44,876 bases of DNA, taken from sequence record PQ850604.1, one strand, 5' to 3'. The notes below the pieces were generated by a model that saw only the letters and a program-made list of their open reading frames with translations, did no database searches and was not told the DNA's origin. The stretch comes from Escherichia phage Haito_Bas83. Positions 14,780 to 44,876 of the stretch are shown piece after piece; the first letter of the stretch is position 1, and every line of letters starts with the position of its first letter. The position numbers and the translations under genes were made by a program.

Positions 14780-14786
14780 TAAAATG

Positions 14787-30611: not shown

Positions 30612-30615
30612 AATC

Positions 30616-32907
30616 TTACTTCCTGTACCGATACATGATGTCGCCTTCGGCGGCAAGTGGGAAACCTTTCGCCCATATAGGCAGGTCACACATCAGCGCG
30701 CAAAGCTCCTCGGTCGTGTAATCGTCGGTGTCCGGCACTTCGGTGATCAATTCATCGTGCACTGACAGGACGATTTCATAGCCCGCAGCTTCAACACCAG
30801 GCATGGACCATGCGAGAATATCGCGGCACAACGCCTGTACTATGTTCTCCGTAAGTTTGCCGCCGTAGGTGTACTGGAATCCCCACTGGCGCGTCGTCTG
30901 ATTCTCGCCCTGGTATTTGATGCGAGTGCTGGTGCGCTTCTTGCCGGTGTCTTCGTCAATCTCGGTAGTGACAGACAGCGCGATGCCCGGATAGCTCATG
31001 ATGCGCCCCGACGGCAACTCAACCTTCAGCCACCAGCCCGCCGCGTTCGGGTCGTCGCGCTCCTCGTCGAATGTTGGGTCGTGCTTCGCCTTCGTGCGCA
31101 CAATCTTGAGCGCTTTCTTGCCATCCGGGCGAACGTTCGCGCCAGCCCAGTATGCCTTACCCGGATTGCGTATTGCACATAACACCGCTTCCTCAAGCTC
31201 GGCCCAAAAGGCTACGGTCTTCGGGTGAGACTCGCGCCACATCCTTTTGATCGCGTCGCAGGTCAACCACACGTTTTTAGGCAGTATGTAAGTCGGGCGC
31301 TCGTCTTTCTTGCCGGGCTTCGGCGGGCGCTTCGCTTCGTTGATGCGGGCAAACTCATAACCGCGTTTAGCCGCCGCCCAAATATGATCGGGGAATGTTC
31401 CCTTCATGACGTCAGCCATTGCGTACAGGTCGAGGCCCAGGTTTTTAGCAAACTGCAAGAACGCCGCGACGCCGCCACCATAGCCCAGTCCCAATTCACA
31501 CGCCTTACCAATCTGGCGTAGGTCTTTGCGGTTGGCTTTGATGTAGTCCGGGTCAAGGCCAAACATCTTACCGGCAGTTTCACAATAGATATCGCGTCCG
31601 GCCTTAAACACCATAAGCGCGGTTTTCTCGCCAGCGATCCAGGCAAGGCCACGCCCTTCCACGTTGGAGTAGTCCGCTACAACAAACTTCTTGCCCTTAG
31701 CCGGGATAATGCACCCGCGAACGGTCGAGGCGGTTAGCTTCGATATGTCATACGCCCAGTGCGCGGTCCCGCGTAACAGGGAGTTGATGCCGTTGGTGAG
31801 CATGTGCGACCGTACCCAAAACGAGACGTCGCTCTCACCTTCGCGGCGCTTAATCTTCCCTTCGTGGTCATCACTGTACTCGCCACGTGCCAGGTTTTGA
31901 GGCTGAAAGCCTTTACCGGCCCAGCGTAGTGTGCGCTTTGCCCCACCATACTGAAGACAACCACGGCGGCGACCATCGGCAGAAAGACCATTGACGAGCG
32001 GATTGTATTTAGTCGATGCCGTTGATGACGCGCCGAGGCGCATTTCAATAAGCACTTTGCCCTCGTCGGGGAAGTCTGGATCTTCCAGTAGGTCATTCAG
32101 CGTGGATTTCTGCGCGTTGTGAATGGTGAACGCCGGGGCGATATCGCGCAGGATTGGCAGGAAGTCATTGCCGGTCAGCTTACCGCCGAACAGTTCCCAG
32201 GCTTCTTCCTTCAATTCCTCTTTATGCACCTGCACCGCCTTGATCGCGGCGTTCGCTAGGTCAACATCCACATAGAAACCGCGGTCGTTAATCAACTGGT
32301 CGATAAGCAGGATTTCGTCTTCCTTCGGGGAGTTGCCCCAGTCCGGTATTCGCCAGTAGACTTCACGCATTGCGATAATATCCAGCGCGGCATAGCGCAG
32401 GAATTTAGCCCATTCTTCAGGGTGAGTCTCGCGCGTGTAGCGGCGGATTTTGTAGGTCTTAGGGGTCGGCTTACAAAATCGCTTAATCAGCGCCTTGCCT
32501 GCCTTATCCTTCGCGTGCTCTGCGTCAACGCCCAGCACCTGGCATTGCATATCGAGGCCACCCGGCAGCGCGTGACGAAAGGCCATAATCATCGTATCTT
32601 CGATCTGGCTTACCGGCAGGTCGATGCCCCACTTTTCACGGATAACCAGGCGGTCAAACAGGAGGCCGTTAGCCATCACTATTTTTGCTTTCTTGCGGGT
32701 TACCTGGCGTAGCGCCTTGCGCAGTTCACGCGGCATCGTGGGGGATTCAGTGGCGTCCCATGTCTGCACGCGGCCCTCGTCGATGGCGTAGGTGCAAATC
32801 ATAATCTCGGTGGATGGGTGTTCTGCATAGGCATACGCACCTGCTTTCTTCAGGTCCACCCCGCTATATGTCTCGGTGTCAAGAAACAGGCGTTCGAAGT
32901 CTTTCAT
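30616..32907 (-). CDS. DNA polymerase, family A, with 3'-5' exonuclease domain
   Basis: Exo I FLDTETYS; Pol motif A DYSNVEGR; motif B RQIGKACELGLGYGGG; motif C VLSVHDELI; 763 aa. Confidence 0.85.
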   Translation of the reverse strand: MKDFERLFLDTETYSGVDLKKAGAYAYAEHPSTEIMICTYAIDEGRVQTWDATESPTMPRELRKALRQVTRKKAKIVMANGLLFDRLVIREKWGIDLPVSQIEDTMIMAFRHALPGGLDMQCQVLGVDAEHAKDKAGKALIKRFCKPTPKTYKIRRYTRETHPEEWAKFLRYAALDIIAMREVYWRIPDWGNSPKEDEILLIDQLINDRGFYVDVDLANAAIKAVQVHKEELKEEAWELFGGKLTGNDFLPILRDIAPAFTIHNAQKSTLNDLLEDPDFPDEGKVLIEMRLGASSTASTKYNPLVNGLSADGRRRGCLQYGGAKRTLRWAGKGFQPQNLARGEYSDDHEGKIKRREGESDVSFWVRSHMLTNGINSLLRGTAHWAYDISKLTASTVRGCIIPAKGKKFVVADYSNVEGRGLAWIAGEKTALMVFKAGRDIYCETAGKMFGLDPDYIKANRKDLRQIGKACELGLGYGGGVAAFLQFAKNLGLDLYAMADVMKGTFPDHIWAAAKRGYEFARINEAKRPPKPGKKDERPTYILPKNVWLTCDAIKRMWRESHPKTVAFWAELEEAVLCAIRNPGKAYWAGANVRPDGKKALKIVRTKAKHDPTFDEERDDPNAAGWWLKVELPSGRIMSYPGIALSVTTEIDEDTGKKRTSTRIKYQGENQTTRQWGFQYTYGGKLTENIVQALCRDILAWSMPGVEAAGYEIVLSVHDELITEVPDTDDYTTEELCALMCDLPIWAKGFPLAAEGDIMYRYRK

Positions 32908-33074
32908 TGCTTTATCCTCACTACTGCGTCAGCGCTGCCGATCATGGAGAAGATACCATCCGACAAGGCAATCTCTTCGCCGTTGTTGCGAATCTCGGCA
33001 ACGGTAAAATACTCGCCCAGCAATTTGGACCATACACGCATTCCGACTTTTACTTCACTGGCTTTAATACGCAT
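32904..33074 (-). CDS. small hypothetical protein (56 aa)
   Basis: ORF MRIKASEVKVGMRVW... whose TGA overlaps the polymerase ATG (ATGA); not in the track. Confidence 0.35.
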   Translation of the reverse strand: MRIKASEVKVGMRVWSKLLGEYFTVAEIRNNGEEIALSDGIFSMIGSADAVVRIKQ

Positions 33075-33085
33075 TTTTCATTGTC

Positions 33086-33113
33086 CTAATAAAAAGCCCG
33101 CAATAAGCGGGCT
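33086..33113 (-). terminator. rho-independent terminator (minus strand) after the SSB-like gene
   Basis: Minus strand reads AAGCCCGC-TTATT-GCGGGCTT followed by TTTTT. Confidence 0.5.
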
Positions 33114-33132
33114 TGAATAGTGGGCTTTGCCC

Positions 33133-33924
33133 TTAACGGCGGCGACGTTTACGTGGTGCTTCGTCTTCGTCGTCGTCGTCGTCCTCATCTTCGTCATCGC
33201 GGGACTTGCGACGCTTGCGAGGTTTTTCGTCTTCCTCGTCTTCGTCATCGTCATCACGACGCTTGGATTTCTTGGACTTGCGCGGCTTATCATCTTCGTC
33301 ATCGTCATCACGACGTTTGGACTTCTTAGCCTTGCGCGGTGCTTCATCTTCGTCATCGTCGTCCAGGTCGTCATCGGAACAAGAAGACCCGCCGCCACCG
33401 AAGGAGTCACCATCGTCACGGAAGCGAAGACCCATCAAACCCGCACCTAGACCTTTGCCGTTGGTGTTGTTCCACGCCCAAATATCCAGGGACACGTTGC
33501 AATAACAACCGGAATAGATTTCCTGGCCTTCGATCTCGTCGCCGTTGATGGTAAGGCCCTGTTCGGTCTGCTTCTCGCCCAGTGACGTTTGGATGTTAGG
33601 CTGTTTGAACGATTTGGCGTTGATGTACAACATGCCTTCAAATTCTTCGGTTACTTCGTCGCGCTCGTCACCGTCACGAACTGCGCATTCCTTAGAATCC
33701 TGGGCGTAGTGGCGGTCCATCCACTTATCGGCGTTCTTCTCGGATTTCAGCTTGTCGGTAAGCACTGCGCGCGCTGCCGCTTCCACTTTGTCCACCTGCG
33801 GATCTTCTTTATCAAGAAGAATCACGGCACGGTATGCCGGTTTTTGTCCATCCTGTTTAGGGGTATCACGTTCCCAAATTTTCAGGAAGCATACACGTAC
33901 ATTTTTCAGGTTGACTTTAGCCAT
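33133..33924 (-). CDS. ssDNA-binding / annealing protein-like (DUF2815-like, tentative) with repetitive charged C-terminal tail
   Basis: Start MAKVNLKNVRVCF with GAGGA RBS; C-terminal ~100 aa are alternating acidic/basic repeats (DDDDEDEAPRKAKKSKRR x3); adjacent to a Cas4-like nuclease. Confidence 0.4.
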   Translation of the reverse strand: MAKVNLKNVRVCFLKIWERDTPKQDGQKPAYRAVILLDKEDPQVDKVEAAARAVLTDKLKSEKNADKWMDRHYAQDSKECAVRDGDERDEVTEEFEGMLYINAKSFKQPNIQTSLGEKQTEQGLTINGDEIEGQEIYSGCYCNVSLDIWAWNNTNGKGLGAGLMGLRFRDDGDSFGGGGSSCSDDDLDDDDEDEAPRKAKKSKRRDDDDEDDKPRKSKKSKRRDDDDEDEEDEKPRKRRKSRDDEDEDDDDDEDEAPRKRRRR

Positions 33925-34014
33925 TTTCCAATTCCTCATTTTCACATTTATCGGGGTTATTGTGAGCCACCCCGTTCGGCTTGGTTGCTAATTTACTTGG
34001 TTGCGCCTAAGCGG

Positions 34015-34257
34015 TCAAGCACTTTTATTAAAAAGATTTCGTGTCACGTAGTTGGTGGCGTTCTCGATCCAGCTTAACGGCGGGCGGTCGATGTGCTTCT
34101 CAACCCAGTCGACGGCGACGTCGCTATATCCGTCGTCCAGCCAGCGGGACGGATGGCGAATCATCCAGGCCACCATTAACACGCCTTGCACGCAATGCAG
34201 GATAAATCCCAGCGCGCCGAGCATAATCATCAATACGAATGCGAATACCTTATTCAT
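34015..34257 (-). CDS. small membrane protein (putative)
   Basis: 80 aa; N-terminal hydrophobic helix FAFVLMIMLGALGFIL. Confidence 0.4.
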   Translation of the reverse strand: MNKVFAFVLMIMLGALGFILHCVQGVLMVAWMIRHPSRWLDDGYSDVAVDWVEKHIDRPPLSWIENATNYVTRNLFNKSA

Positions 34258-35650
34258 TGCTTAAGTCCTCGTCAGTAGCTTCAGACCACGCGGGGCGCGG
34301 GTCGTCGATTGGTGCTAACACCGGTTTAGCTGGTGCGCGCGTGATTTTATCACACAATTTCGCCCACACTTTCGGTTTCTCGTCCTTCAATACCTTCTCG
34401 GCATCAGTAGGACTGAGCAATGTTTCTTTATACATCACGTCGCGCTTGATCCGGGCCTTAGTGAAGACTTCAATCACTTCGCTCTCGTCCGCCCACTTGC
34501 GATTACCTTCCTTACCGGCAACCATCTTGAGGCCCAGCGATTCGCCATCGCCCGCCATTACGGCCTTGAATACCGCGGACTCGATAGCCTTGATGTGCTG
34601 GCGCATTGCGTCAAGACCTTCATATGCCTTGCGCAGCTCCGCCGCGCTCATAGCGCCTGGTGCTTCTTCTTCTTTCTTGCCACGCTTCGCACGTCGTGCC
34701 GCTTTCCGGGCTTCGCGATCGGTAGCCTTCGGTGCTTCGTCCGCCAGGTCGTCGTCTGTTGCCGTTGGTGGGGTCATCGTGTCGATGGCGGCCTTAGCGC
34801 GGGCACTACACTGATCCGCAAATCTACACCACTGACAGGCATCAACGCTCGGTCGGAAGTCGGCACGGGTAAGTCCCTTCTTGCCGCGGGAATACGCGTC
34901 CAGTGCGTCAATAGCACGCTTGGATGCAAACTTCGCGAATATCTCCAGCGCTTCCACGGTAATATCCCACTCCGACGCCCCGCCGCAATACGGCTGGAAG
35001 ATTACCAGGCGAACGGTTGTAATGTCGTACATGGTTTGCAGCTTGCGCAGCAGGCCCAGCGCGTACAACATAAGCTGTTTGTTTTCTTTCGCCTCGACCT
35101 TATGTCGCCCGGTCTTCAGGTCGCCAACAATCAGCATGTACGTGCCGTCGGTCTTCTTCATGACCATTACCATATCGGCAGTTCCGAACGTCTTCACCTT
35201 GTTGCCGTCTATCTCGAAGCCCGGATGCAAGATGCGGGTGAGATCGGCGCGCATTTCAAGCTGTACAAACTCCGCCACTTCAAGGAGCGGTCGCCAGTGG
35301 TCGATGTACGCGTCGCACTGTTTCACCATGTCGTCGTTAACCAGCACGCCGCCTTTCGGTGCTTTCGGGTGCGCCTTTACCGGCCCCTTACCTTCGTTCT
35401 CAACGTAACACCCTTTGTACGTCTTCGCGGATAGCTTCTTCTCTCCGGCAATGATGCGGTTTAGCACGACTTCTGATACGGTGTGCATACTCGTACCGTT
35501 AATCGCAGCTTGCCCGGATTCGTTCGGGATACCTTTTTCGACTACCATGGCGGCGGGGCACCCCATCCATTTTTTAGATCCCGATGGCCCGAGTAATGAG
35601 TGTTCGGTATTACTGCCAGATTGTGTTTTGCGCTTTGGTTTAATAGCCAT
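34250..35650 (-). CDS. PD-(D/E)xK exonuclease with Cas4-like cysteine cluster (DUF2800-like)
   Basis: IVGDLKTGRHKVEAKENKQLMLYALGL core and C-terminal CQWCRFADQC; 466 aa. Confidence 0.5.
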   Translation of the reverse strand: MAIKPKRKTQSGSNTEHSLLGPSGSKKWMGCPAAMVVEKGIPNESGQAAINGTSMHTVSEVVLNRIIAGEKKLSAKTYKGCYVENEGKGPVKAHPKAPKGGVLVNDDMVKQCDAYIDHWRPLLEVAEFVQLEMRADLTRILHPGFEIDGNKVKTFGTADMVMVMKKTDGTYMLIVGDLKTGRHKVEAKENKQLMLYALGLLRKLQTMYDITTVRLVIFQPYCGGASEWDITVEALEIFAKFASKRAIDALDAYSRGKKGLTRADFRPSVDACQWCRFADQCSARAKAAIDTMTPPTATDDDLADEAPKATDREARKAARRAKRGKKEEEAPGAMSAAELRKAYEGLDAMRQHIKAIESAVFKAVMAGDGESLGLKMVAGKEGNRKWADESEVIEVFTKARIKRDVMYKETLLSPTDAEKVLKDEKPKVWAKLCDKITRAPAKPVLAPIDDPRPAWSEATDEDLSNE

Positions 35651-35829
35651 TATTCAACCCTTGTAAACTGGACAATTACATATTTCACATTAGCCAGACC
35701 TGCTTTTTCTACGCGGCGCTTAACTTCATTTTGTGCGTCCACGAAGCAATTGCTCGCGTTAGTGTTTTCCACAATAAAAGAAGTGTGGTCGTCTAAGTCG
35801 TGGCATGTTGCCAGCACGAAGAATTTCAT
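35650..35829 (-). CDS. small hypothetical protein
   Basis: 59 aa from MKFFVLATCHD with RBS GGGAGA; start overlaps the upstream stop (TAATG). Confidence 0.3.
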   Translation of the reverse strand: MKFFVLATCHDLDDHTSFIVENTNASNCFVDAQNEVKRRVEKAGLANVKYVIVQFTRVE

Positions 35830-36080
35830 TATTTCGTCTCCCAACGGTCAATTACTTTTTCCTCCGACGATACTGCAAAGCGAACATATTCTAGATTGGA
35901 GTCCGCCCAAATATAAAAGTCGGGATTAGTAAAGGTGGTGCGCTTAATTTGCGCGGGGTTATCGCGGCGTTTATCTATCACGGCAACGCGTGATTTAAAG
36001 TTGCCGATACGTTCGAATAGCCAATAATAAGGGCGCTGGTCGCGTGAATCCACCGCCTCGATTAGCGTGAAACGTGCCAT
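35829..36080 (-). CDS. hypothetical protein
   Basis: 83-aa ORF in the early operon. Confidence 0.4.
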   Translation of the reverse strand: MARFTLIEAVDSRDQRPYYWLFERIGNFKSRVAVIDKRRDNPAQIKRTTFTNPDFYIWADSNLEYVRFAVSSEEKVIDRWETK

Positions 36081-36128
36081 TGTCTCGTCCTCTAAAAATA
36101 GGCCCGCAGATTAGCGGGCCGGATAATA

Positions 36129-36650
36129 TTAATCTTCTAATTCGAAATACGTTTCTACGATTTCTTTTAAATCTTTATGGAAGTCTTCGACGTCGTCATC
36201 TTCCAGCTTGGCGACGGATTTAATTTCGAACGCTTCCAGCAGATCATCAAATTCGTCGTTTGCGTCGTCGTCATCGCCGCCTGCGATAATCGCGGCATAC
36301 TGCTTGATTTCGTCGCGCATCTCTTTCAGAGGATCGGCTTCTTTCTTGCCTTTACCTTTCGCCGGTGCTTTTTTAGACTTCGCAGGTGCTTCTTCCTCGT
36401 CCGCGTCGTCGTCTTCTTCTTCTACGGCTTCTTTCTTAGCCTTGCCCTTTGCAGGCGCTTTTTTGGACTTCGCCGGTGCTTCATCTTCAGCGTCGTCATC
36501 TTCGACTACTTCTTCTTTTGCCTTGCTCTTAGCCGGGGCTTTCTTCGCTTCCTGTTTACCAACGGCAGCGCCAGCAGTTTCGTAATGCTTAGCGATGGTT
36601 TCCAGTGCTACTACGCCGCGAGTGATCAGGTTTACGATTTGCTCAAACAT
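36129..36650 (-). CDS. lysine-rich repeat protein with acidic C-terminus (first gene of leftward early operon)
   Basis: RBS GGAGAT; three copies of (D/E)EAPAKSKKAPAKGK(A/G)KKE repeats; C-terminal DDDDANDEFDDLLEAF. Confidence 0.5.
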   Translation of the reverse strand: MFEQIVNLITRGVVALETIAKHYETAGAAVGKQEAKKAPAKSKAKEEVVEDDDAEDEAPAKSKKAPAKGKAKKEAVEEEDDDADEEEAPAKSKKAPAKGKGKKEADPLKEMRDEIKQYAAIIAGGDDDDANDEFDDLLEAFEIKSVAKLEDDDVEDFHKDLKEIVETYFELED

Positions 36651-36710
36651 GGTATATCTCCGATTGGTTAATTTAAGTGTTCGGTGCGGTATGCCCCGTC
36701 AACGAGGTGA

Positions 36711-36740
36711 ATAATAGGTTGGTTGCAGGTGGGGTGTCAA
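36711..36740 (-). promoter_or_regulatory. putative leftward early promoter
   Basis: Minus strand reads GTTGACACCCC (-35 TTGACA), 18-bp spacer containing TGCAACCAAC, then TATTAT. Confidence 0.4.
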
Positions 36741-36751
36741 CAACTAATTTC

Positions 36752-36810
36752 AAAAAAAAAGCGCCGAAGCAAAATGCGACGGCGCTAACCAATAAGAGAC
36801 AATGAGACGG
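36752..36810 (-). ncRNA. candidate small RNA or attenuator (promoter-like TTGAAA-N17-AATAAT plus terminator)
   Basis: Minus strand: TTGAAA (36844-36839), -10-like at 36817-36822, then ~55 nt ending in hairpin GCGCCG-13 nt loop-CGGCGC plus nine T. Confidence 0.25.
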
Positions 36811-36857
36811 GGATTATTATTACACGCGTGCGCGCCCGTTTCAATATACAAAAGGAG

Positions 36858-36886
36858 TTGACACCCCGCAATTTTAGGTGTAGTTT
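36858..36886 (+). promoter_or_regulatory. putative rightward early promoter
   Basis: GTTGACACCCC (-35 TTGACA), 17-bp spacer, TAGTTT; an inverted copy of the same 11-mer lies at 36731-36741. Confidence 0.4.
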
Positions 36887-36917
36887 CGTTGGTCATTAAC
36901 CAATAGGAGACAGAACA

Positions 36918-37247
36918 ATGCATATCAACGACGCAATCGAAATGTTAACTAAGACCGTTAGTTGTGAGACAAGCCGGTCCTGGGCTTATACCGATGCCGT
37001 TGGTGCGGCGTTATTTGAAATCGAACGCCTGCGCAGTGTCGAAAAAGAATTGCGCGCCAAGCTGGAATTACTCAACGGTACGGCAGCAAGCAAGCTGCAA
37101 AAACACAATGAAGAAATGGAAGAATACAAAAAGCAGGTTATCCGTTTACGCGACGAGGGCAAGTCCTGGGCGATGATTGCCGAGTTGACCGGAATTAATC
37201 AGAGCACCGTGCGCTCCTGGGTACGCAATAATAAAACTTCTAAGTAA
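36918..37247 (+). CDS. HTH DNA-binding protein (putative transcriptional regulator)
   Basis: 109 aa; helix-rich with C-terminal HTH-like KSWAMIAELTGINQSTVRSW; first gene of the rightward operon. Confidence 0.5.
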   Translation: MHINDAIEMLTKTVSCETSRSWAYTDAVGAALFEIERLRSVEKELRAKLELLNGTAASKLQKHNEEMEEYKKQVIRLRDEGKSWAMIAELTGINQSTVRSWVRNNKTSK

Positions 37248-37257
37248 GGCAACGGCA

Positions 37258-39522
37258 ATGAGCTTAATTAAATTCGCAGTAACAAGACCCGCTAAAAAAG
37301 GCGAAAAAGCCAGGGCGGAAAACTTCGAGATGACCACTGATGAGTTTTTCGAATTTATCAATGATGCGAAAGAAATCTCCTCGGTGCACATCAACAAGAC
37401 TGAAGATAAAGCCGAGTATGCGCGCCGCAAGCGTAAGGCCGATGGCATCGTGGCCTATACCAATGATGGGTTACGCCGCAAGACCAGTGCGGTCGACCGC
37501 TCGATCCTGTTCTTCGATATTGACCGCACCGACACCCGCACATTACGCCGCTGCCGTAAAGCGTTCACCGACGCTGGTCTGGAGCATGTATTCCACACCA
37601 CGACCGGCGACCGTCACCCACTGAAAGGCGGCACACGTTGCGCCCGTTTCCTGGTGCTCACTGACAAGCCTGTACCGGCTGAAGACCTGGGCCGCGTCCA
37701 GTATGCGCTATTAGACCAACTGGGCCTGTCAGATGTGGACTTCGACGATTGTACAAAAGACACCAACCGCCTTATGTACCTGCCTCACCAGCAGTCTGTC
37801 ATAAAGTGCCATTACGGCAAGCGCGCCCGTGTCCGTCGTCTGCTTCGCCTGGCTGACAAGCTGGGAGTTGAGAAAGAGGAAGTGCGCCGCGAACTGACCC
37901 AGGGTGATGACGGCGTGGCGGACGGCATTCTGGATTGGTGCTTCCAGGCTGGCTTTGAACCGCTGTCATCCGGTCGCGGTTATGAAGTGCCTTGCCCGAA
38001 CGAGCACCTGCATAGTGGCGAAGGGTCGACGGCTATCATGGTTAAGGATGGCGAGATCCGTTTCAAGTGTATGCACACCGGCAACGAGTGCTGTTCCGAA
38101 CTGAACAAACACCAGCACCTGGCGCTGCGTCTGATCGGCATTCCGGACCACCTGAACGTCGAACCTCACAACATGTCACGCAAGCAAATCGCCGCCATCC
38201 TTCCGGGACTGGACGACGAGGAAGTGGAATCGTGCTATGAGCATATTGTTGATGCGGTCGGAGACGGCGACGAGTACGGCGAATGCACCGACGCTGACCT
38301 GGACAACGAGCCGGTCGCACTATTCAGTAAGCACGACCCGATCATCGAAGGCCTGGTCAACTTCAAATCGACCTGGTATATGGCTGGTGAGTCGAACATT
38401 GGTAAGTCGTTCTACGTGCTGGGCCAGATGGGTGCTGTTGCCGCAGGTATTCCGTTCGGCGGTGCGAAGGTTGTCCAGTCGCATTGCTTCTATTTCGATG
38501 CGGAAGGCGGCGAAGCCTCAAACCAGCGTAAGGAAGCATTGCAGATTAAATATGAGCACGACCTCGACAAGCTGCACATTATCGATCTGCAATCACGCGG
38601 CTGGGATATCACCAGCAAGTCCGGCTTGCGCGAAGTTATCAGCTTTATCAACCGCACCGCTAACGGGGAGCCGGTTGGCCTGGTGGCCTTCGACTCACTA
38701 AACCAGACTGTAGCGCTGCGGTCCGCTGATGCCAAACCATTCGACGAGAACAACGCCAGCGATATGGGCGAAGTTGTCAAAGCGCTGAAGTCCATTGCGG
38801 AAAATACAGGCGGCAGTGCGGGCGTCATCCATCACCCGGCTAAGGGTGCAAACGGCAGCAGATCCCCACGCGGGTCCGGCGCGCTTCATGGTGCTGTCGA
38901 TTCTGCGTTCTTCCTGGAACAGCCGGACGACAACCAGCCAGGCCAGCTTAACCTGTATCACGAAAAATCACGTAACGGCATCAAGCAAGCTCCGCGCGGC
39001 TTCGTCCTGCTCAAGTGCAAGGTCAAGGTGGATCTCCGCAAGTCTGATGCGTTCGAAGCACACCAGTCCACCAGCACCGGACCAGACTTTGGTGATGTTG
39101 TTGCCGGTTGGGACGTCAAGCCGATCGCATCCACGCCACGTGACGAGACTCTCTACCTCGTACCGGTCGCCCTGGCACCGTTCGCTATCGAACAGGCGAA
39201 GGCAGCAGGCAAGGCAGCAGTTAAGGAAGAGAACACCGCCGGACCGCGCAACGAAAAAGAGAAGGTGCTTTATGCGGCACTGGAAAAACTGATGGAAGAT
39301 AACCCGGACCATACTGGATTCAGTAAATCGGCAATTGTCCGCCAGGCTGGACTTGCGAAAGGTGGCACATCGACGAAGGCAATCGACGATATGGTGGAGC
39401 GCGGAGTGCTCGGATTTTATACAGATCCACACACTGGGGCCATCTACGGGTCGTCGAATCTGGTCATCAAATCGGATATACCCATCACGCTTTCGGCGAC
39501 CGATGACGACCTGAAAGATTAA
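37258..39522 (+). CDS. DNA primase / RecA-fold replicative helicase (primase-helicase) with C-terminal winged-helix-like region
   Basis: Walker A GESNIGKS and Walker B-like GLVAFDSL; Cys/His cluster CPNEHLHSGEGS...CMHTGNEC; 754 aa; iteron region immediately downstream. Confidence 0.6.
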   Translation: MSLIKFAVTRPAKKGEKARAENFEMTTDEFFEFINDAKEISSVHINKTEDKAEYARRKRKADGIVAYTNDGLRRKTSAVDRSILFFDIDRTDTRTLRRCRKAFTDAGLEHVFHTTTGDRHPLKGGTRCARFLVLTDKPVPAEDLGRVQYALLDQLGLSDVDFDDCTKDTNRLMYLPHQQSVIKCHYGKRARVRRLLRLADKLGVEKEEVRRELTQGDDGVADGILDWCFQAGFEPLSSGRGYEVPCPNEHLHSGEGSTAIMVKDGEIRFKCMHTGNECCSELNKHQHLALRLIGIPDHLNVEPHNMSRKQIAAILPGLDDEEVESCYEHIVDAVGDGDEYGECTDADLDNEPVALFSKHDPIIEGLVNFKSTWYMAGESNIGKSFYVLGQMGAVAAGIPFGGAKVVQSHCFYFDAEGGEASNQRKEALQIKYEHDLDKLHIIDLQSRGWDITSKSGLREVISFINRTANGEPVGLVAFDSLNQTVALRSADAKPFDENNASDMGEVVKALKSIAENTGGSAGVIHHPAKGANGSRSPRGSGALHGAVDSAFFLEQPDDNQPGQLNLYHEKSRNGIKQAPRGFVLLKCKVKVDLRKSDAFEAHQSTSTGPDFGDVVAGWDVKPIASTPRDETLYLVPVALAPFAIEQAKAAGKAAVKEENTAGPRNEKEKVLYAALEKLMEDNPDHTGFSKSAIVRQAGLAKGGTSTKAIDDMVERGVLGFYTDPHTGAIYGSSNLVIKSDIPITLSATDDDLKD

Positions 39523-39628
39523 ATTTTGCGCGCATTGGTTGCCAAATTGAGTGTTTTTAGCTGGTCGCATTGGTTGCCGTGTAGTGTAAATATAGTGAAT
39601 AGTTATGCAGTTTTATTGCATAAAATAA

Positions 39629-39786
39629 GCGGGACAAAAAGCGGGACAGACAGGGGGCGGGACAAAGCGGGACAGCACCCCTTGTCCCGCCCGGATGGCG
39701 CGGCTTTCAGAGGAGCGGGACAGGCGGGACAAACCCCAGTCTTTCAGACTAGACGGGGGTCAGTTGGCCCCCCTCGTCTGAGACTG
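39629..39786. repeat. composite element copy B: GCGGGACA iteron array plus conserved long hairpin
   Basis: GCGGGACA at 39629, 39641, 39657, 39667, 39715 and 39724, inverted TGTCCCGC at 39683, hairpin at 39737-39786; near-identical to 11910-12065. Confidence 0.6.
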
Positions 39787-39945
39787 CATAAAATCCGGGA
39801 TTGCATAATGTACGGCAGCATGACGTGAATTGCGGTCGTCGACGAACTAGGCAACCAATGCGAGTTGTATTATGGGTGGTGAAAAATGCAGTTTGCAGTT
39901 ACAGCAGATAGCGATCAACTTTTTCATACGCATGATTAATATTGG

Positions 39946-39974
39946 TTGCATTCAGCCTGGCACCCTGCTAGATT
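39946..39974 (+). promoter_or_regulatory. putative promoter upstream of the 40005 gene block
   Basis: TTGCAT (inside ATTGGTTGCA), 17-bp spacer, TAGATT, followed by a second ATTGGTTGCA. Confidence 0.35.
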
Positions 39975-40004
39975 GGTTGCACCCCAACGAGAGGACCAAA
40001 CAAA

Positions 40005-40175
40005 ATGAAATTTCCAGTAACCATCAAAGACGGTAAATCAACTATCACCTTCACAAGCAACGACCAGGGCACCTATGAAAGCGGGGCGACTTGCATGTCT
40101 ACCCTGGACGATGTGATGATTCGTGTTAATTCCGGTAAAGCCTCGATTGTTGACGACAACACTAAGAAGGACTGA
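40005..40175 (+). CDS. small hypothetical protein (56 aa)
   Basis: RBS GAGGA; MKFPVTIKDGKSTITF...; not in the track (<60 aa). Confidence 0.35.
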   Translation: MKFPVTIKDGKSTITFTSNDQGTYESGATCMSTLDDVMIRVNSGKASIVDDNTKKD

Positions 40176-40178
40176 ACA

Positions 40179-40484
40179 ATGAGAGCATTAATCTGGAAAT
40201 ACTCACGGGCCATAGCGAAGCTGGACGAAGCGAAAAACACAAACGGCAACGTAGACTATGCGCGCCAGTTTGCGGCACGGGCACACCAACACATCATGAG
40301 TGCGCTCGACGATATGGACGCCAGCATGGATGACCTGGGTCCGCTGCGTAAGGCTATCCATGAATACGCGCTGGCATTCTCCCGTGAGCGCCTGGCCTAT
40401 CGCTTCGGTATCGGGGATAAGGCAGTGTCAAACGTCGCCCGGATTAAAGCACAGCGCGAACTATTCGCCCAGCTTGCGAAATAA
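40179..40484 (+). CDS. hypothetical protein
   Basis: 101-aa ORF closely following the previous gene. Confidence 0.45.
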   Translation: MRALIWKYSRAIAKLDEAKNTNGNVDYARQFAARAHQHIMSALDDMDASMDDLGPLRKAIHEYALAFSRERLAYRFGIGDKAVSNVARIKAQRELFAQLAK

Positions 40485-40493
40485 GGGGCCAAA

Positions 40494-40763
40494 ATGGGCC
40501 GTAGCCGAGCTAAACAGCTTTCTTGGCATATTCCCCTGCATTGCATACGAATATGGGCTAAGAACGCGATTGAGGGCGATTCCGTGTACTGGTGCTATCG
40601 CGATGACGTGAAGCCACTTACGCAGACCCGCTACTTGCACCAGTTCGCAGCACAACACGATTTCAGGGTGCGGACTTCCTTGCAACCAATGGGGATACGT
40701 ATTACATTACGCCGGAAGCCCGCCGTTGAGCGGGTAGGCAAACACTGGAGACTGAGCAAATGA
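40494..40763 (+). CDS. hypothetical protein
   Basis: 89-aa basic protein; RBS AAGGGG. Confidence 0.4.
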   Translation: MGRSRAKQLSWHIPLHCIRIWAKNAIEGDSVYWCYRDDVKPLTQTRYLHQFAAQHDFRVRTSLQPMGIRITLRRKPAVERVGKHWRLSK

Positions 40764-40893
40764 TGATAGGCGGATTCTCGCAGGAGTTTATCTACCTGCA
40801 TATGTGCGTACTTGACTACGAACAACACGGCATCGCTACGGTATGCGATGGCGACTATAAGACTGTTGACGAGATTGAGGAGACTGAGCAATG
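40759..40893 (+). CDS. small hypothetical protein (44 aa)
   Basis: ATG overlaps the upstream stop and its own stop overlaps the next ATG (ATGA). Confidence 0.25.
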
Positions 40894-41418
40894 AAATTAC
40901 TATTCCGCCGTAAGCGCGATGGATACATCATGAAGCCGATCCAGACCATGGCTAAATACGTGCGATTGCGCCACGTTCACAGCGGCATTGAGTGTATGAC
41001 GACTAAGGCAAATCTGCCGGAGGGGTACGACGTACTCACACATGATATTGAGCGCGGCGATGTGCTGCGTGATATTCGCCACGGCACTTGCTGGGTCGTC
41101 GAGTATGTCGGTCGGCACGGCTTGCGTATGCAATCCCGCGCGGATGGCGTAGTCGGGATGACTTACTTCGGGCTAATCCACTATGAGCGCGTGGGGCGCA
41201 AGTACAGCCTCCTCAAGTCGCAGCCGCATGAGCGCGCTACTTACGACGCGACCCAGGTGCAATCTAAAATACGCCGTGCTGCGCACGAAATCGTCAATCG
41301 CTTCGATGCCGTGGCGAATGCACAGCGCCATGCGCAGGAATTCGGTGTGGGATTTATCCGTGTCGAACCAGACGGCAGCATGAAGGCCATCGACCCGCGC
41401 TCGGTGATTCTGAAATGA
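40891..41418 (+). CDS. hypothetical protein
   Basis: 175 aa; RBS GAGGAG; no motif I recognise. Confidence 0.45.
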   Translation: MKLLFRRKRDGYIMKPIQTMAKYVRLRHVHSGIECMTTKANLPEGYDVLTHDIERGDVLRDIRHGTCWVVEYVGRHGLRMQSRADGVVGMTYFGLIHYERVGRKYSLLKSQPHERATYDATQVQSKIRRAAHEIVNRFDAVANAQRHAQEFGVGFIRVEPDGSMKAIDPRSVILK

Positions 41419-41561
41419 GCGCGACTATCCGTGATATGCTCATGCATAACCGCTTTGAGATAGGCGGGCGAGTGTTCTGCAATTACTTCGTGGCGCGTGC
41501 TTGGGCGCGCCATATTGGACAACCAGAGGGGGCAATACAATGCTATACATCCTCGCGATAA
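41415..41561 (+). CDS. small hypothetical protein (48 aa)
   Basis: ATG overlaps the upstream TGA; coding status uncertain. Confidence 0.2.
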   Translation: MSATIRDMLMHNRFEIGGRVFCNYFVARAWARHIGQPEGAIQCYTSSR

Positions 41562-41641
41562 TGTGCGGCGGCAGTCTTGCGGCCCTGGTCTTGTTGGCTG
41601 GGATTATCGGCCTGATTAAATACTTATGGTGCAAATTATGA
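41540..41641 (+). CDS. small membrane peptide (33 aa)
   Basis: RBS GAGGGGG; hydrophobic MLYILAIMCGGSLAALVLLAGIIGLIKYLW. Confidence 0.3.
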   Translation: MLYILAIMCGGSLAALVLLAGIIGLIKYLWCKL

Positions 41642-41925
41642 TACACGATCTGATATTTTGGTTTGGTTTGGGGTGTGCGTCGCTCTTTGCTATGGTGCTG
41701 GCGCTGCTGATTTGGATATTCCTGGTATGGCCCGCGGTGGAAGCAGCCAGCATTACCCGCATGACGTTCAAGATATACAAGCGCCGCGGCATATCGGAAC
41801 ACCCGACCAGGTTGCGCATGTGGTGGCTTTGGTATCTGGATATGATTGGCGGTCGAAGGTTTGAGGCCATCCGGTCATCCGGGTGGGAATGGAAAGGCGT
41901 CGGCAAGTGGTCCATTTTCGATTAA
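41638..41925 (+). CDS. membrane protein (putative)
   Basis: ATG overlaps the upstream stop (ATGA); one or two TM helices; Trp-rich. Confidence 0.4.
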   Translation: MIHDLIFWFGLGCASLFAMVLALLIWIFLVWPAVEAASITRMTFKIYKRRGISEHPTRLRMWWLWYLDMIGGRRFEAIRSSGWEWKGVGKWSIFD

Positions 41926-41942
41926 ATATGCAGTCGTGATAT

Positions 41943-41977
41943 AGTCCCAGTGAGCTAAAACTTACTGGGACTTTTTT
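41943..41977 (+). terminator. terminator hairpin immediately upstream of the lysis genes
   Basis: AGTCCCAGT-12 nt loop-ACTGGGACT plus TTTTTT, directly followed by ATG 41978. Confidence 0.5.
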
Positions 41978-42268
41978 ATGGATAAGCTAAACGAGTGGTT
42001 ATTCGCCCTCGCGTGTCTTGCAGGTGGCTTCGTTGGCGCTCGCATTCACGGTGAGGCAACGAAAGGGCCGCTAAATTTTGTGTTGTTTATCGTGGTCGGC
42101 TTCTTGTGCGCCGTGTTTGGGGCACCAGCTATTGCCGAGTGGTTTAATCTAACCGGACCGAGAACTGTCGCCGGTCTTGGCTTCGTAACGGCAATCTTCT
42201 GGATGCCGGTCGCCGCCAGAATCCGTGAAGCAATCTCCTCGTTCCGTCTGCCGGGGAATGCAAAATGA
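41978..42268 (+). CDS. holin (putative, three TM segments)
   Basis: 96 aa with three hydrophobic segments and a charged C-terminus; immediately upstream of the endolysin. Confidence 0.5.
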   Translation: MDKLNEWLFALACLAGGFVGARIHGEATKGPLNFVLFIVVGFLCAVFGAPAIAEWFNLTGPRTVAGLGFVTAIFWMPVAARIREAISSFRLPGNAK

Positions 42269-42504
42269 TTATCGCCATCCTGTTATTAGTGATCGGGGCT
42301 TCGTCGCTGTATAACGTATACGCGCCATCCGTCCAGGATGGCATTTGCGGACGGGTGCTCTACCTGCTTACAGCAATGACCTGTATTATTGGCCTGATGC
42401 AAACGGGGGACGTATCGAATACAGTCTGGTCCGTGCTAATCTGGCTATTCGCATTACGCACACTGCGTAATGCTGTTTTAAATGGGGTAAAACATGCGAT
42501 TTAG
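42265..42504 (+). CDS. second small membrane protein of lysis cassette (holin/antiholin-like)
   Basis: 79 aa, two hydrophobic helices; overlaps both neighbours. Confidence 0.4.
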   Translation: MIIAILLLVIGASSLYNVYAPSVQDGICGRVLYLLTAMTCIIGLMQTGDVSNTVWSVLIWLFALRTLRNAVLNGVKHAI

Positions 42505-42985
42505 CGACAACGGTCTAAGATTTACGGCAGCGTGGGAGTCGTTCAGCCCAGTGCCGTATTTCGCGACTAAGAAGGAGCAGGCCCGCGGCTTGTACACCTG
42601 GGGCTACGGTCATACTGGCACTAATCCGCCACAGAGCATTACCCGCGTGGAAGCGCTGGAGCTACTCAAGCGTGATGTGGCGTATGCCGAGAACTGGGTG
42701 AACAAGTACGCACACCCGAGCATCAATCAGGCGCAATTCGACGCGCTGGTGGATCTGGTAATCAATGCCGGTCAAGGTCCGATCGTACCGGATAACATTG
42801 CCAATGACTTCGATGACGCGGTGCGCATGGGTGATTGGGCCAAAGTCCGTGCTACGCTGCCGCAGTTCCGCAAGCAAGGCGGTGAAGTGCTCAAGGGCCT
42901 GGTACGTCGTGCAATCGGCAGACAGGCGCTATTCGATGGTAAGCAGTGGGACGTTGCCGAGAAAATCGGTCGTAACGCGGCATAA
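42494..42985 (+). CDS. endolysin (phage lysozyme family)
   Basis: 163 aa; N-terminal region FTAAWESFSPVPY...GLYTWGYGHTG resembles lysozyme-like endolysins. Confidence 0.7.
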   Translation: MRFSDNGLRFTAAWESFSPVPYFATKKEQARGLYTWGYGHTGTNPPQSITRVEALELLKRDVAYAENWVNKYAHPSINQAQFDALVDLVINAGQGPIVPDNIANDFDDAVRMGDWAKVRATLPQFRKQGGEVLKGLVRRAIGRQALFDGKQWDVAEKIGRNAA

Positions 42986-43001
42986 TAAGAGGAAACACAG
43001 T

Positions 43002-43169
43002 ATGTTAAAAAGTATTCTTGATCATAACGCGGACGCGCTTGCCGCACTGGCTAAAACGGAAGACCCAGGCGCGCGCGCCATTATCGCGGACACTATCAGT
43101 CATGCGGGTGTCTTTGACGCGAAGCTGCCAAGCCCGCCACCGCCGGAAGAACCAGACCCAGCGGCATAA
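43002..43169 (+). CDS. small hypothetical protein (55 aa)
   Basis: RBS AAGAGGAAACACAGT-ATG; Pro-rich acidic C-terminus; the longer track ORF 42765-43169 overlaps the endolysin and is rejected. Confidence 0.35.
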   Translation: MLKSILDHNADALAALAKTEDPGARAIIADTISHAGVFDAKLPSPPPPEEPDPAA

Positions 43170-43175
43170 ACACGA

Positions 43176-43201
43176 AGCCCGGTTAATTCCGGGCTTTTTA
43201 T
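43176..43201 (+). terminator. rho-independent terminator
   Basis: AAGCCCGG-TTAATT-CCGGGCTT plus TTTTT. Confidence 0.6.
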
Positions 43202-43205
43202 TGCT

Positions 43206-43235
43206 TGACTTGCAACCAACATAAGGGCCATACTG
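43206..43235 (+). promoter_or_regulatory. putative promoter with two TGCAACCAA motifs
   Basis: TTGACT, 18-bp spacer containing TGCAACCAAC, CATACT, followed by TGCAACCAAT. Confidence 0.3.
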
Positions 43236-43407
43236 CAACCAATCAACGAGAAGGAGTAACACACTATGACACGCAATGATATTTATGTACTGGCAATCTG
43301 GTCCGCCGCCGCATTCATCGGTATGGTTATTTGCGAATTGCTATAGCCCGCCGCCATAGGGACCGTGGTATATTGTCCACGGACCCATAATCAGGAAGTA
43401 AATTAAT

Positions 43408-44550
43408 ATGCACCCTCAAACTAAAATTACCGACGAGCAATTGATCGCTGAATTGCAATCTGGCACTACCTCGAAAGATATTGCGAAGAAATACGGCATT
43501 GCCCTACGCAATGTCTATATGCGCAAAGCCCGCCTGTCGAAGAAAGGCATTGGTCACGGTAACGATGCCGTAATCCGTAAGCGCGTTGCCGATGGCTTCG
43601 GCGTTAAGCGCGTATCCGCCCTGGTGCGTGGCAATGGCGAAGAGGTCATGTCCTGGGTCATCACCGAGCAAGACAAGGAGCGCCAGCTTGAAGCAATGCG
43701 CGCCGTTGTCGAGGGCATGAATAGCGAAATCACACCGGCAGCACCAGTGAGCGCTCCGCCAGTCCCGATCCAGGCGCTTGACCTGCTTAACCTGTATACC
43801 GTGTCGGACTTCCACCTGGGAATGTTGGCGTGGGGCGAGGAGACTGGCGAGGACTGGGATATGGCAATCGCTGAAGACCTGTTCTACCGCTGGTTTGTCG
43901 AAGCCTTCGCCCGCGCACCGGACGCTGGCACTGCCGTAATCAATATTCTCGGTGATATGGCGCATTTTGACAGCCTCGACGCCGTCACGCCAGCCAGCGG
44001 TCACGTACTGGACGCAGATACCCGCTACCAGAAACTGGTCCGCTACATGATTCGCATGGTGCGCAACGTGGTTGAACTGGCGCTGCAAAAACACCATAAG
44101 GTCAAACTGTTAATCGTCCAGGGTAATCATGATGAGTCCGGTATGATTTGGCTGGCTGAGATGTTCAATACCCTGTACGAGAACGAGCCACGCGTTGATG
44201 TGGACACGTCCCCGGACGTTTACAAAATGGTGCAGCACGGTAAAACAACGCTGTTCTTCCACCACGGACACAAAGCACGCTTTGACGCCATCGAACCGGT
44301 CATGATTTCTAAATTCAGACAGGCTTTCGGGTCCAGTGAGTACAGCTACGCGCACGTGGGCCACTTGCACCACCAGAAGATTGTTGAATCCCGCAACATG
44401 ATTGTTGAACAGCACCGGACCCTTGCCGCGAAAGACGCATATGCGAGCCGCGGCGGTTGGATGTCTGGTCGCAGTGCTAACGTCATCACCTATAGCGCCA
44501 ACTACGGCGAAGTAGCGCGCTTAACCATTAGCCCGGAAATGTTGAAATGA
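43408..44550 (+). CDS. calcineurin-like metallophosphoesterase with N-terminal HTH domain
   Basis: Phosphoesterase motifs in order: SDFHLG, ILGDMAHFD, VQGNHDE, FFHHGH, AHVGHLHH; N-terminal TSKDIAKKYGIALRNVYMRKARL is HTH-like. Confidence 0.6.
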   Translation: MHPQTKITDEQLIAELQSGTTSKDIAKKYGIALRNVYMRKARLSKKGIGHGNDAVIRKRVADGFGVKRVSALVRGNGEEVMSWVITEQDKERQLEAMRAVVEGMNSEITPAAPVSAPPVPIQALDLLNLYTVSDFHLGMLAWGEETGEDWDMAIAEDLFYRWFVEAFARAPDAGTAVINILGDMAHFDSLDAVTPASGHVLDADTRYQKLVRYMIRMVRNVVELALQKHHKVKLLIVQGNHDESGMIWLAEMFNTLYENEPRVDVDTSPDVYKMVQHGKTTLFFHHGHKARFDAIEPVMISKFRQAFGSSEYSYAHVGHLHHQKIVESRNMIVEQHRTLAAKDAYASRGGWMSGRSANVITYSANYGEVARLTISPEMLK

Positions 44551-44759
44551 TTAGACAAGTATTCATGAGCACGCAGGCCACCCGCCTGAAAGAGCTACGC
44601 AAGCAACTCGAAGGATTGCGCCGATTCGAACGAACGGCAGCGGCAATAGGCATGTCTATCAGTGAGCGGATCGAGATACTATCGCAAATACGCTACACAG
44701 AAGGCGCTATAAGCGAAGTAGAAAGCATGTTGACCAGATACTACGGTCGCGCCGTTTAA
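44547..44759 (+). CDS. hypothetical protein
   Basis: 70 aa, helical; ATG overlaps the upstream stop; followed by a terminator. Confidence 0.4.
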   Translation: MIRQVFMSTQATRLKELRKQLEGLRRFERTAAAIGMSISERIEILSQIRYTEGAISEVESMLTRYYGRAV

Positions 44760-44766
44760 CCCTCCC

Positions 44767-44792
44767 AGCCCGCCGATTTGGTGGGCTTTTTT
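44767..44792 (+). terminator. rho-independent terminator
   Basis: AGCCCGCC-GATTT-GGTGGGCT (one G-U pair) plus TTTTTT. Confidence 0.55.
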
Positions 44793-44801
44793 GTGCCTGT
44801 T

Positions 44802-44810
44802 ATAATCCCC
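44802..44810 (+). promoter_or_regulatory. extended -10 element (TGTTATAAT)
   Basis: TGnTATAAT match just after the terminator at the window end; could drive the terminase genes if the genome continues into position 1. Confidence 0.3.
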
Positions 44811-44876
44811 CTTAGATGGCTGGGCCGTCTCCTATGTTGCCGATGGTCGGCGCATATGCATAAAAGGGCTTATATC

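Follow-up and report, generated by a model that had tools for sequence, protein, structure and literature searches.

Immediately 5' of the holin gene of Escherichia phage Haito_Bas83 (sequence record PQ850604.1) lies a 41-bp element that is best read as a composite transcription-unit boundary, which would terminate transcription arriving from upstream, mask translation of the holin gene on read-through RNA and restart transcription from an extended -10 promoter embedded in the terminator itself. From sequence comparison and RNA folding we place the probability of this reading slightly above even, at about 0.55. The window, i.e. the whole stretch of 44,876 nt that was analysed, is essentially the complete genome of a virulent siphovirus of E. 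coli, genus Dhillonvirus. It shares 99.5% identity with Escherichia phage RuthEpting_Bas85 (PQ850624), and some 150 related phages in GenBank match it at 85-98%. Structural and tail genes occupy the + strand at 1-24070, the - strand holds the early and replication genes, from 36650 down to 24095, and a rightward replication/accessory operon extends from 36918 to 41925. It is followed by the lysis cassette (41978-42985), an exonuclease module (43408-44759) and terminase genes across the circular junction, and this gene order makes the element, called here site 1, the boundary between the replication/accessory operon and the lysis genes on one strand. The components of site 1 and its two neighbours are as follows.

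41626-41925 (+), open reading frame (ORF) of 99 amino acids, last gene of the rightward replication/accessory operon (phrog_2531, E = 3.8e-35)
41937-41945 (+), extended -10-like element TGATATAGT, with TG at 41937-38 and the hexamer TATAGT at 41940-45
41943-41972 (+), site-1 hairpin of 12 pairs, from the terminator scan and folding
41951-41954 (+), predicted transcription start at G41952 or A41953, 7-8 nt after the hexamer, from sigma70 geometry
41978-42268 (+), holin gene, first of the lysis cassette (phrog_2359, holin, 1.5e-32)

The 5' arm of the hairpin (41943-41954, AGTCCCAGTGAG) pairs with the 3' arm (41961-41972, CTTACTGGGACT) around the loop 41955-41960, and the stem consists of nine contiguous Watson-Crick pairs (41943-51 with 41964-72) plus a G.U, an A-U and a G-C pair. 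With a minimum free energy (MFE) of -20 kcal/mol, the hairpin is more stable than every one of 200 dinucleotide shuffles, which fold at -5.4 +/- 2.0 kcal/mol (z = -7.2). The run of six T that follows occupies 41972-41977, with the first T paired, and the ATG of the holin gene at 41978 comes directly after it. A first-pass annotation of the window had described a 9-bp hairpin and six T at 41943-41977; this is correct for the core of what is a 12-pair stem, except that the gap to the ATG is 0 nt and not 1 nt. A scan of 30000-44876 returned 38 terminator-like sites, versus 16.1 +/- 4.2 in shuffled sequence, and site 1 has the most pairs of any + strand site in that scan. The GenBank record of a relative, vB_EcoS_WFI, has a 'putative transcriptional terminator' at the homologous pre-holin place, so the bare terminator at this position is not new. 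As for the start of the holin gene, an in-frame TGA at 41951-53 leaves ATG 41978 as the first possible start codon, and the N-terminal MDK lines up with the Kagunavirus homologues.

The last 3 nt of TGATATAGT are the first 3 nt of the 5' arm, which is the overlap that the first-pass annotation had noticed. The hexamer matches the sigma70 consensus at 5/6 positions, and the TG at -15/-14 as well as T-12, A-11 and T-7 are present; the best -35 match is 3/6, the same as background. In the window, 41937-41945 is the only exact match to TGNTATAGT, and one exact match per 90 kb is about the chance level, so that a single sequence cannot show selection on TGATATAGT. The predicted start at about 41952 directly follows the 9-bp core of the 5' arm, and RNA beginning there folds at -1.2 kcal/mol, compared to -20 kcal/mol with the full hairpin, so it would be unable to terminate itself. 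The earlier suggestion that transcripts from the -10-like element escape the hairpin thus stands as far as sequence comparison and folding carry it. An SD-like (Shine-Dalgarno) sequence, GGGA at 41967-41970, is part of the 3' arm, 7 nt 5' of the ATG, the spacer being C41971 and the six T; the computed probability that it is unpaired rises from 0.00 in read-through RNA to 0.26 when the RNA begins at 41952. Because the SD sits in the 3' arm at this distance from the ATG, the T-run would have two uses, as the U-tract and as the SD-to-ATG spacer. The stop codon of the 99-amino-acid ORF (41923-41925) is 17 nt 5' of the hairpin, and a ribosome terminating there would not be expected to get to the 5' arm.

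Comparison of relatives points to selection. Among 26 distinct sequences of Dhillonvirus, all nine positions of TGATATAGT are constant, including TGATAT, the part of it outside the stem, and so are the five unpaired T positions of the T-run; the flanking third codon positions in the same sequences are variable at 44/49 and 56/65 (86-90%). At the holin junction of four other lineages, a -10 element is found in the same register against a different hairpin. In a relative of 73% identity (L200), TGTTAATAT adjoins the hairpin CCCCCGTG..CACGGGGG, which is followed by the T-rich tract ATTTTATT and then TTG. In Kagunavirus and Jerseyvirus, where the holin is about 50% identical, CGTG[G/C]TATCCT overlaps ATCCTCCAG..CTGGAGGAT, and the sole variable base of the motif is at -13, the position left free by an extended -10 element; these phages keep the anti-SD/SD hairpin (CCUCC/GGAGG) and the -10-like element without a T-run. 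In the distant Klebsiella phage KLB22 and a metagenomic relative, L094 (holin 34% identical), TTGACC-17 nt-TACTAT adjoins TCCCCGGA..TTCGGGGA, with seven or eight T after the hairpin and then ATG. The predicted start is 3 nt past the 5' arm in Kagunavirus and at the last 2 nt of that arm in KLB22. A more distant phage, L203, has TGATAATCT beside a hairpin, and was left out of the count, since homology of its holin is unclear and its start codon uncertain. Taken with the counts at other junctions given below, these data support the view that TGATATAGT behaves as a selected sigma70 extended -10 element and not as a chance match.

Some further features of the holin junctions were recorded on the way. 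A mini-ORF of three codons, ATG CAG TCG TGA (41928-41939, +), precedes the hairpin on the 3' side of the upstream stop codon, with a TGA that provides the TG(A) of the extended -10 element; it is kept in most Dhillonviruses, with ACG replacing ATG in L099. We rejected the mini-ORF as a required leader peptide that melts the 5' arm, given the ACG in L099, its absence in Kagunavirus and its lack of an SD. Also rejected was an extension of the helix by pairing of the conserved upstream CGTG with the start-codon region, which amounts to 3-5 weak pairs and would be broken by the G/C polymorphism of Kagunavirus. In Kagunavirus and Jerseyvirus (L033-L036, L053-L146), an imperfect 16-bp palindrome, TTAGGATAATTCCTAA, is found about 30 nt 5' of the holin hairpin and, in the numbering of the putative holin promoter, covers about -34 to -19. 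The variants of this palindrome are non-compensatory, and it could serve as an operator.

The same module, with the -10 hexamer against the stem, appears to recur at two other gene junctions of the window, called here sites 2 and 3.

14777-14785 (+), extended -10-like element TGATAAAAT, adjoining the 5' arm of site 2
14786-14815 (+), site-2 hairpin and T-run; stem 14786-14794 with 14802-14810, nine pairs, two of them G.U
14816-15415 (+), minor tail protein gene (Pfam Phage_min_tail, 3e-11)
11014-11045 (+), third composite, site 3, made of TGTTAATAT (11014-22), a hairpin (11023-11039) and six T (11040-45)
ATG at 11062 (+), tail assembly chaperone gene after site 3 (Pfam Phage_TAC_4, 3.7e-23)

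The first-pass annotation had seen a similar hairpin-T-ATG arrangement before the first gene after the tape-measure gene, with GGGGG of the 3' arm serving as the ribosome-binding site (RBS), and had missed the -10-like element at this site as well as the whole of site 3. The arrangement is confirmed: the hairpin at 14786-14810 (MFE -19.7 kcal/mol, z = -6.2) runs into six T at 14810-14815, and the minor tail gene begins with the ATG at 14816. The SD GGGGG at 14804-14808, in the 3' arm and 7 nt 5' of the ATG, is fully paired in read-through RNA (probability of being unpaired, 0.00); for sites 1 and 2 this probability becomes 0.22-0.26 in RNA from the predicted start. KLB22 likewise has GGAGG in the 3' arm at its tape-measure junction. 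TGATAAAAT includes the tape-measure stop codon TGA (14777-79) and an in-frame TAA, and is invariant in 10 aligned relatives. The predicted start at about 14792-93 (A14793 is a purine) leaves 2-3 nt of the 5' arm, and the stem begins 6 nt from the tape-measure stop codon. Hairpins of sites 1 and 2 are kept in every Dhillonvirus relative compared, with 97.8% of the alignment cells paired at site 2. Covariation at site 2 within Dhillonvirus is limited to one-sided changes and is not above shuffles, and for this reason support for the hairpins was drawn from their turnover between lineages. In three Dhillonvirus relatives the T-run of site 2 is degenerate, and the hairpin and SD are retained there. 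Site 3 is found 3' of the major tail gene, whose stop codon is 30 nt from the stem; its hairpin is less stable (MFE -13.6 kcal/mol, z = -2.1), the predicted start, A11029, is just after the 5' arm, and the SD of the chaperone gene, GGAG at 11049-52, is outside the hairpin. Like those of sites 1 and 2, the hairpin of site 3 was picked up by the terminator scan.

The hairpin at the major-tail junction is a different one in each of five lineages, and always follows TGn(T/C)AnnnT, or GnTAnnnT in L166; the motifs are TGTTAATAT, TGATAATAT, TGTTAACAT, cGTTATTAT, TGCCATACT and TGATAAGAT. In KLB22, the terminators of the tape-measure, major-tail and tail-fibre genes follow TGATAGACT, TGATAAGAT and TGGTAATAT, respectively. 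Across the compared sites, A at position 2 and T at position 6 of the hexamer are constant, T at position 1 is found in 10/11, and positions 3-5 vary, which gives the motif profile the signature of sigma70 -10 recognition (profile of Mitchell et al. 2003, as cited in bioRxiv 10.64898/2026.02.12.705533). The n at -13 varies also, being G/C in Kagunavirus, T/A at site 3 and G/A at 43366.

The remaining motifs of the window, and the terminators that go with some of them, are listed below; the first three belong to the intergenic motif set only.

6214-6222 (+), TGATAATAT, 56 nt before the scaffold gene
12089-12097 (+), TGATACAAT, 37 nt before the tape-measure gene
22211-22219 (+), TGTTATCAT, 73 nt before the tail-fibre gene
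43175-43196 (+), terminator-like hairpin at the end of the lysis cassette, from the terminator scan
43366-43374 (+), extended -10-like TGGTATATT, 34 nt before the exonuclease gene (43408)
44767-44806 (+), terminator hairpin (44767-44787) and then a perfect extended -10 element, TGTTATAAT (44798-44806), an uncompressed version of the layout

Placement of these motifs is not random. The intergenic DNA upstream of plus-strand genes, 1,673 nt in total, holds eight sense copies of TGnTAnnnT (6214, 11014, 12089, 14777, 22211, 41937, 43366 and 44798), versus 1.8 +/- 1.3 expected from composition-matched shuffles, 0/5,000 of which reach eight. All of them stand 31-73 nt before a + strand start codon, and none is found upstream of the minus-strand early genes. 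Hexamers of the seven sites other than 41937 have 4-6/6 matches, and none of the eight motifs has a -35 element above background. The early divergent region 36700-36890 has consensus TTGACA promoters, which suggests that two promoter classes may serve the early and the later genes.

Register against the terminators was scored as TGnTAnnnT ending within -4 to +3 nt of the stem start, under identical rules for phage and host. The motif is in register at 3/20 terminators of the window, at 3/17 in KLB22 and, in 250 kb of E. coli K-12, at none of 53 terminators of the hairpin-plus-T kind; for 6/37 versus 0/53, Fisher p = 0.004, an optimistic value, as the register rule was set after the data had been seen. 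Within the window, the terminators at 11023, 14786, 41943, 43175 and 44767 are each paired with a TGnTAnnnT, for those at 6988 and 8192 the -4 to +3 register is empty, and the terminators at convergent gene ends (4979, 21000 and 24072) are without the motif.

Two of the separated motifs also persist in relatives. At 43366 the motif is TG[G/A]TATATT in every relative with an alignable upstream region, even next to unrelated upstream DNA. TGTTATAAT is located 71 nt 5' of the ATG of the small-terminase gene, which on the circular map is position 1 of the window, and the divergent relative L179 has a perfect TGATATAAT at another distance from the preceding terminator. Of separate note, an imperfect inverted repeat, GGGACCGTGG..CCACGGACCC (43347-43390, +), which varies among relatives, has the 43366 element in its loop, and the leader after the 44798 element contains a hairpin, AGATGGC..GCCGTCT, at 44815-44833 (+). 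In L179 this leader hairpin is altered on both arms, to AGGTGGT..GCCACCT, and is followed by a second hairpin, GCCGATGGTCGGC.

The mechanism that we propose treats promoter activity, start sites, termination efficiency and the consequences for timing as predictions. The hairpin and T-run of site 1 would, with good support from the anatomy, act as an intrinsic terminator for polymerase arriving from the replication/accessory operon. RNA that reads through would still fold the hairpin and bury the holin SD GGGA, so that the lysis genes would be shut at the level of translation. Host sigma70 holoenzyme would start at about 41952 from the embedded extended -10 element, with no usable -35, and the restarted mRNA, which would lack the 5' arm, is predicted not to terminate itself and to expose the SD, on a U-rich leader of 26 nt. 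Premature lysis could then not result from transcription of the replication/accessory operon. At the tape-measure junction, the terminating ribosome probably melts the 5' arm, weakens termination and couples translation of the next gene; this is proposed for site 2 because the stop codon is only 6 nt from the stem, and does not apply to the holin and major-tail junctions, where the stops are 17 and 30 nt away. The composites at 11014-11045, 14777-14815 and site 1, together with the separated pairs 43175/43366 and 44767/44798, would split the plus-strand genes into self-contained units. As a matter of speculation, polymerase released at the T-run might slide back about 35 bp and reinitiate. The deepest-conserved pair of features is, on the comparisons made here, the SD hidden by the 5' arm and a predicted promoter-born transcript without that arm, termination apparently being added in Dhillonvirus, L200 and KLB22. 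The first-pass annotation had offered either insulation or antitermination-dependent timing of the lysis and distal tail genes; insulation, with an internal promoter, is the one supported by comparison.

Besides the choice of the register rule after the fact, several points weigh against the composite boundary. Our literature search found no mapping of transcription starts or terminators, Term-seq data, reporter assay or in vitro transcription for Dhillonvirus, Kagunavirus or KLB22-like phages; RNA sequencing has been done on a Kagunavirus, and start sites are not given there (PMC12645636). The hexamers at 11014 and 14777 match at only 4-5/6 positions, all discriminators are G+C-rich, and such promoters could be weak or need special conditions. 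Tandem stops (TGA TAA) and an A-tract that pairs with the U-tract account in part for the motif at 14777. In Kagunavirus K1H, intergenic TGnTAnnnT is not enriched (8 versus 6.0 +/- 2.4) and 0/16 T-run terminators have the motif. It is not obvious what stoichiometric benefit a late operon would draw from a stop followed at once by a restart, and a constitutive sigma70 promoter alone does not explain the late timing of the holin.

The elements may be plain attenuating terminators, which lessen read-through at module boundaries, set expression ratios and stabilise the 3' ends of upstream mRNAs, in which case the downstream genes would live on the read-through fraction and the -10-like motifs would be no more than A/T-rich flanks and stop codons. 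We regard this, the default view, as a serious possibility, if on balance an unlikely one. Plain terminators are routine between the late genes of virulent siphophages (over 20 are annotated in the record of phage T1, with the next gene in many cases starting 10-20 nt further on), the WFI record annotates the sites discussed here simply as terminators, TAnnnT occurs in register by chance at 17% of E. coli terminators, and the overlap of the 14777 motif with stop codons and the A-tract fits as well. Such an account has difficulty, however, with the full TGnTAnnnT, found at none of the host terminators and at 6/37 in the window and KLB22; with the invariance of TGATAT outside the stem, next to third positions of which about 88% vary; with a motif that stays in register while the hairpin sequence turns over; and with the complete -35/17 nt/-10 promoter at the holin site of KLB22. 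The SD of read-through RNA is moreover fully paired, which would starve the holin of translation. A purely translational role, in which the SD-occluding hairpin is opened by an upstream ribosome, RNA processing or slow breathing, with the T-run as a U-rich spacer or enhancer and the motif having some other role (e.g. a sigma70-dependent pause, or a nuclease or Hfq site), seems to us rather improbable as the whole explanation, and overlaps with the composite boundary rather than excluding it, being compatible with most of that model. It agrees with the anti-SD/SD hairpin that Kagunavirus and Jerseyvirus keep without a U-tract, with the three Dhillonviruses where hairpin and SD outlast the T-run of site 2, and with the position of the site-2 stop codon, which is the classic geometry of translational coupling. 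At site 1, however, the distance from the stop codon to the stem makes coupling unlikely and the six T are invariant, the SD of site 3 is outside its hairpin, and the invariance of T-12, A-11 and T-7 with a free -13 fits recognition of DNA by sigma70 and not an RNA site.

A late switch like that of phage lambda, where a tR'-type terminator is overcome by a Q-, N- or put-like antiterminator that times the lysis and distal tail genes, is highly improbable here, even though the place just 5' of the holin mirrors pR'-tR'-S of lambda, as outlined in PMC7547250, and -10-like elements induce the sigma-dependent pauses used in Q loading. Lambdoid regulatory genes are absent from this phage, which is virulent. 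Searches with Pfam and PHROGs of 20 small ORFs, 10 flanking the site and 10 early, a set that is part of the ORFs of the window, found no Q or N homologue, annotated antiterminator, sigma or anti-sigma protein, beyond one helix-turn-helix (HTH) protein with a Sigma70_r4_2 match. The -10 element, whose hexamer ends at 41945, reaches inside the 5' arm, so that its own transcripts would be without the terminator, and the Kagunavirus/Jerseyvirus hairpin has no T-run, so that in those genera there is nothing to antiterminate. These points tell against the antitermination half of the earlier proposal. A bolder extension of the composite boundary, which we consider a long shot, is that Dhillonviruses, and perhaps T1-like and KLB22-like phages, run a middle/late programme from -35-independent extended -10 promoters fused to the 5' arms of terminators, with a polymerase relay and an AsiA-like early switch on sigma70 region 4. 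Released polymerase would slide back about 35 bp and reinitiate, producing short, hairpin-capped mRNAs in which the SD is exposed only on the restarted RNA, and an early phage protein acting like AsiA of T4 would move host polymerase from -35-driven TTGACA promoters to the composites. If true, this would amount to temporal control without a phage sigma factor or antiterminator. The HTH protein just mentioned is encoded at 36918-37247 (+), the first gene of the rightward early operon; it has 109 amino acids, scores above the Pfam cut-offs for HTH_23, HTH_28 and Sigma70_r4_2, is called 'transposase' in the annotation of relatives, and is a candidate early transcription regulator.

Of the known systems, the plus-strand units proposed here resemble the 'transcriptons' of T1, same-strand modules bounded by terminators, each with a proposed sigma70 promoter, which are themselves in silico proposals (PMC11447400). 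T1, like the phage studied here, is a virulent coliphage siphovirus that uses the host polymerase and has many terminators in a long same-strand operon, and our scan found -10-like hexamers against 7/20 of its terminators, two of them with TG. In the Dhillonvirus composites, unlike T1, the -10 hexamer adjoins or overlaps the 5' arm, with the predicted start inside the terminator; the element is of the extended -10 type without a -35; and at two junctions the 3' arm doubles as the RBS and the T-run as the SD-to-ATG spacer. The composite may be widespread in virulent coliphages. In the late operon of T1 (L205), the terminators at 10545, 14235, 16106, 24970 and 28566 are directly preceded by -10-like hexamers, namely TATAAT, TAATAT, TATTAT, TAAAAT and TGGTAATAT, the last of which also stands, unchanged, where the tail-fibre gene of KLB22 ends.

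Hairpins that sequester an SD, and translational coupling, are familiar from the coat/replicase pair of MS2 and from many operon junctions. The present elements resemble them in that the SD is in the 3' arm and fully paired, and in that the stop codon of site 2 is near enough for opening by a ribosome; they differ in that the hairpin would also be a terminator, and the release proposed for the holin gene is by an alternative start and not by ribosome unwinding. The likeness to pR'-qut-tR' of lambda is that a terminator guards entry to the lysis genes, and the promoter is independent of a -35-bound activator. The lambda promoter is, however, about 200 nt upstream, and its transcript contains tR' and needs Q, whereas here the start would be inside the terminator.

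Overlapping terminator and TGn-promoter activity has been shown for the class II terminators of T7, with discussion of 'combined terminator-promoters' and recycling (bioRxiv 10.64898/2026.02.12.705533), and widespread promoter-terminator coupling in bacteria is reported in bioRxiv 10.64898/2026.08.19.745784. The common points with our elements are a single short DNA element that would both end and start transcription, a sigma70 TGn extended -10, and recycling of RNA polymerase as the rationale. The T7 class II terminators have no hairpin, whereas here there is a class I hairpin with the promoter on its 5' side and a predicted transcript that omits the 5' arm. Single-molecule work has found that RNA polymerase often stays on DNA after intrinsic termination and can reinitiate nearby (PMC6978380, PMC6978322, PMC11364550). 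A promoter about 35 bp 5' of the release point would be an ideal target for such recycling, which for these elements serves as a mechanistic rationale only. What appears distinctive here is the combination of a -10 element on the 5' flank of a class I hairpin, a start inside the hairpin, a 3' arm that is the RBS and a T-run that is the spacer.

These elements bear on how virulent siphophages without a polymerase, sigma factor or antiterminator of their own time and balance gene expression. If the composites work as proposed, they would explain why lysis genes directly 3' of a same-strand replication operon are silent on early transcripts, and would put two independent locks, termination and SD masking, on those genes. 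They would be a natural case of a class I terminator and an extended -10 promoter with common sequence, in which the promoter transcript evades the terminator, and the design would be useful for compact synthetic insulators. 'Transcriptons' and polymerase recycling would become testable in a phage of the BASEL collection that grows on E. coli K-12. If the promoter half is inactive, the elements would be ordinary attenuating terminators that double as RBS-masking hairpins.

Downstream of the holin gene, the lysis cassette contains two more genes.

42265-42504 (+), second holin-like gene (phrog_2508, 1.4e-24)
42494-42985 (+), endolysin (Pfam Phage_lysozyme, 4.8e-21)

A scan of bacterial genomes found no relative of the holin, a metagenome scan for relatives returned two clades only, both already in the comparison, and Rfam at gathering thresholds gave no family match anywhere in the window. 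Rz-like spanin genes are found not in the cassette, but among the head genes (4548-4989, +), about 7.5 kb from the holin-endolysin cassette across the circular junction, and have a bidirectional terminator (4979-4997) at their 3' side. In the Bas85 record there is a plus-strand coding sequence at 36177-36671; the overlapping minus-strand ORF 36129-36650 matches phrog_3127 (8e-50) and is on the strand annotated in phage SO-1, and the plus-strand call is probably on the wrong strand. Finally, seven of the ten copies of CGGGACG/CGTCCCG in the window are clustered at 11744-11865, between the genes for the tail chaperone and the tape measure, as direct and inverted repeats that form two groups, and Bas85 has small ORFs annotated over them; the record of Sodalis phage SO-1 labels the homologous stretch as 'region A' repeats, and has a similar 'region B' after the helicase-primase gene.

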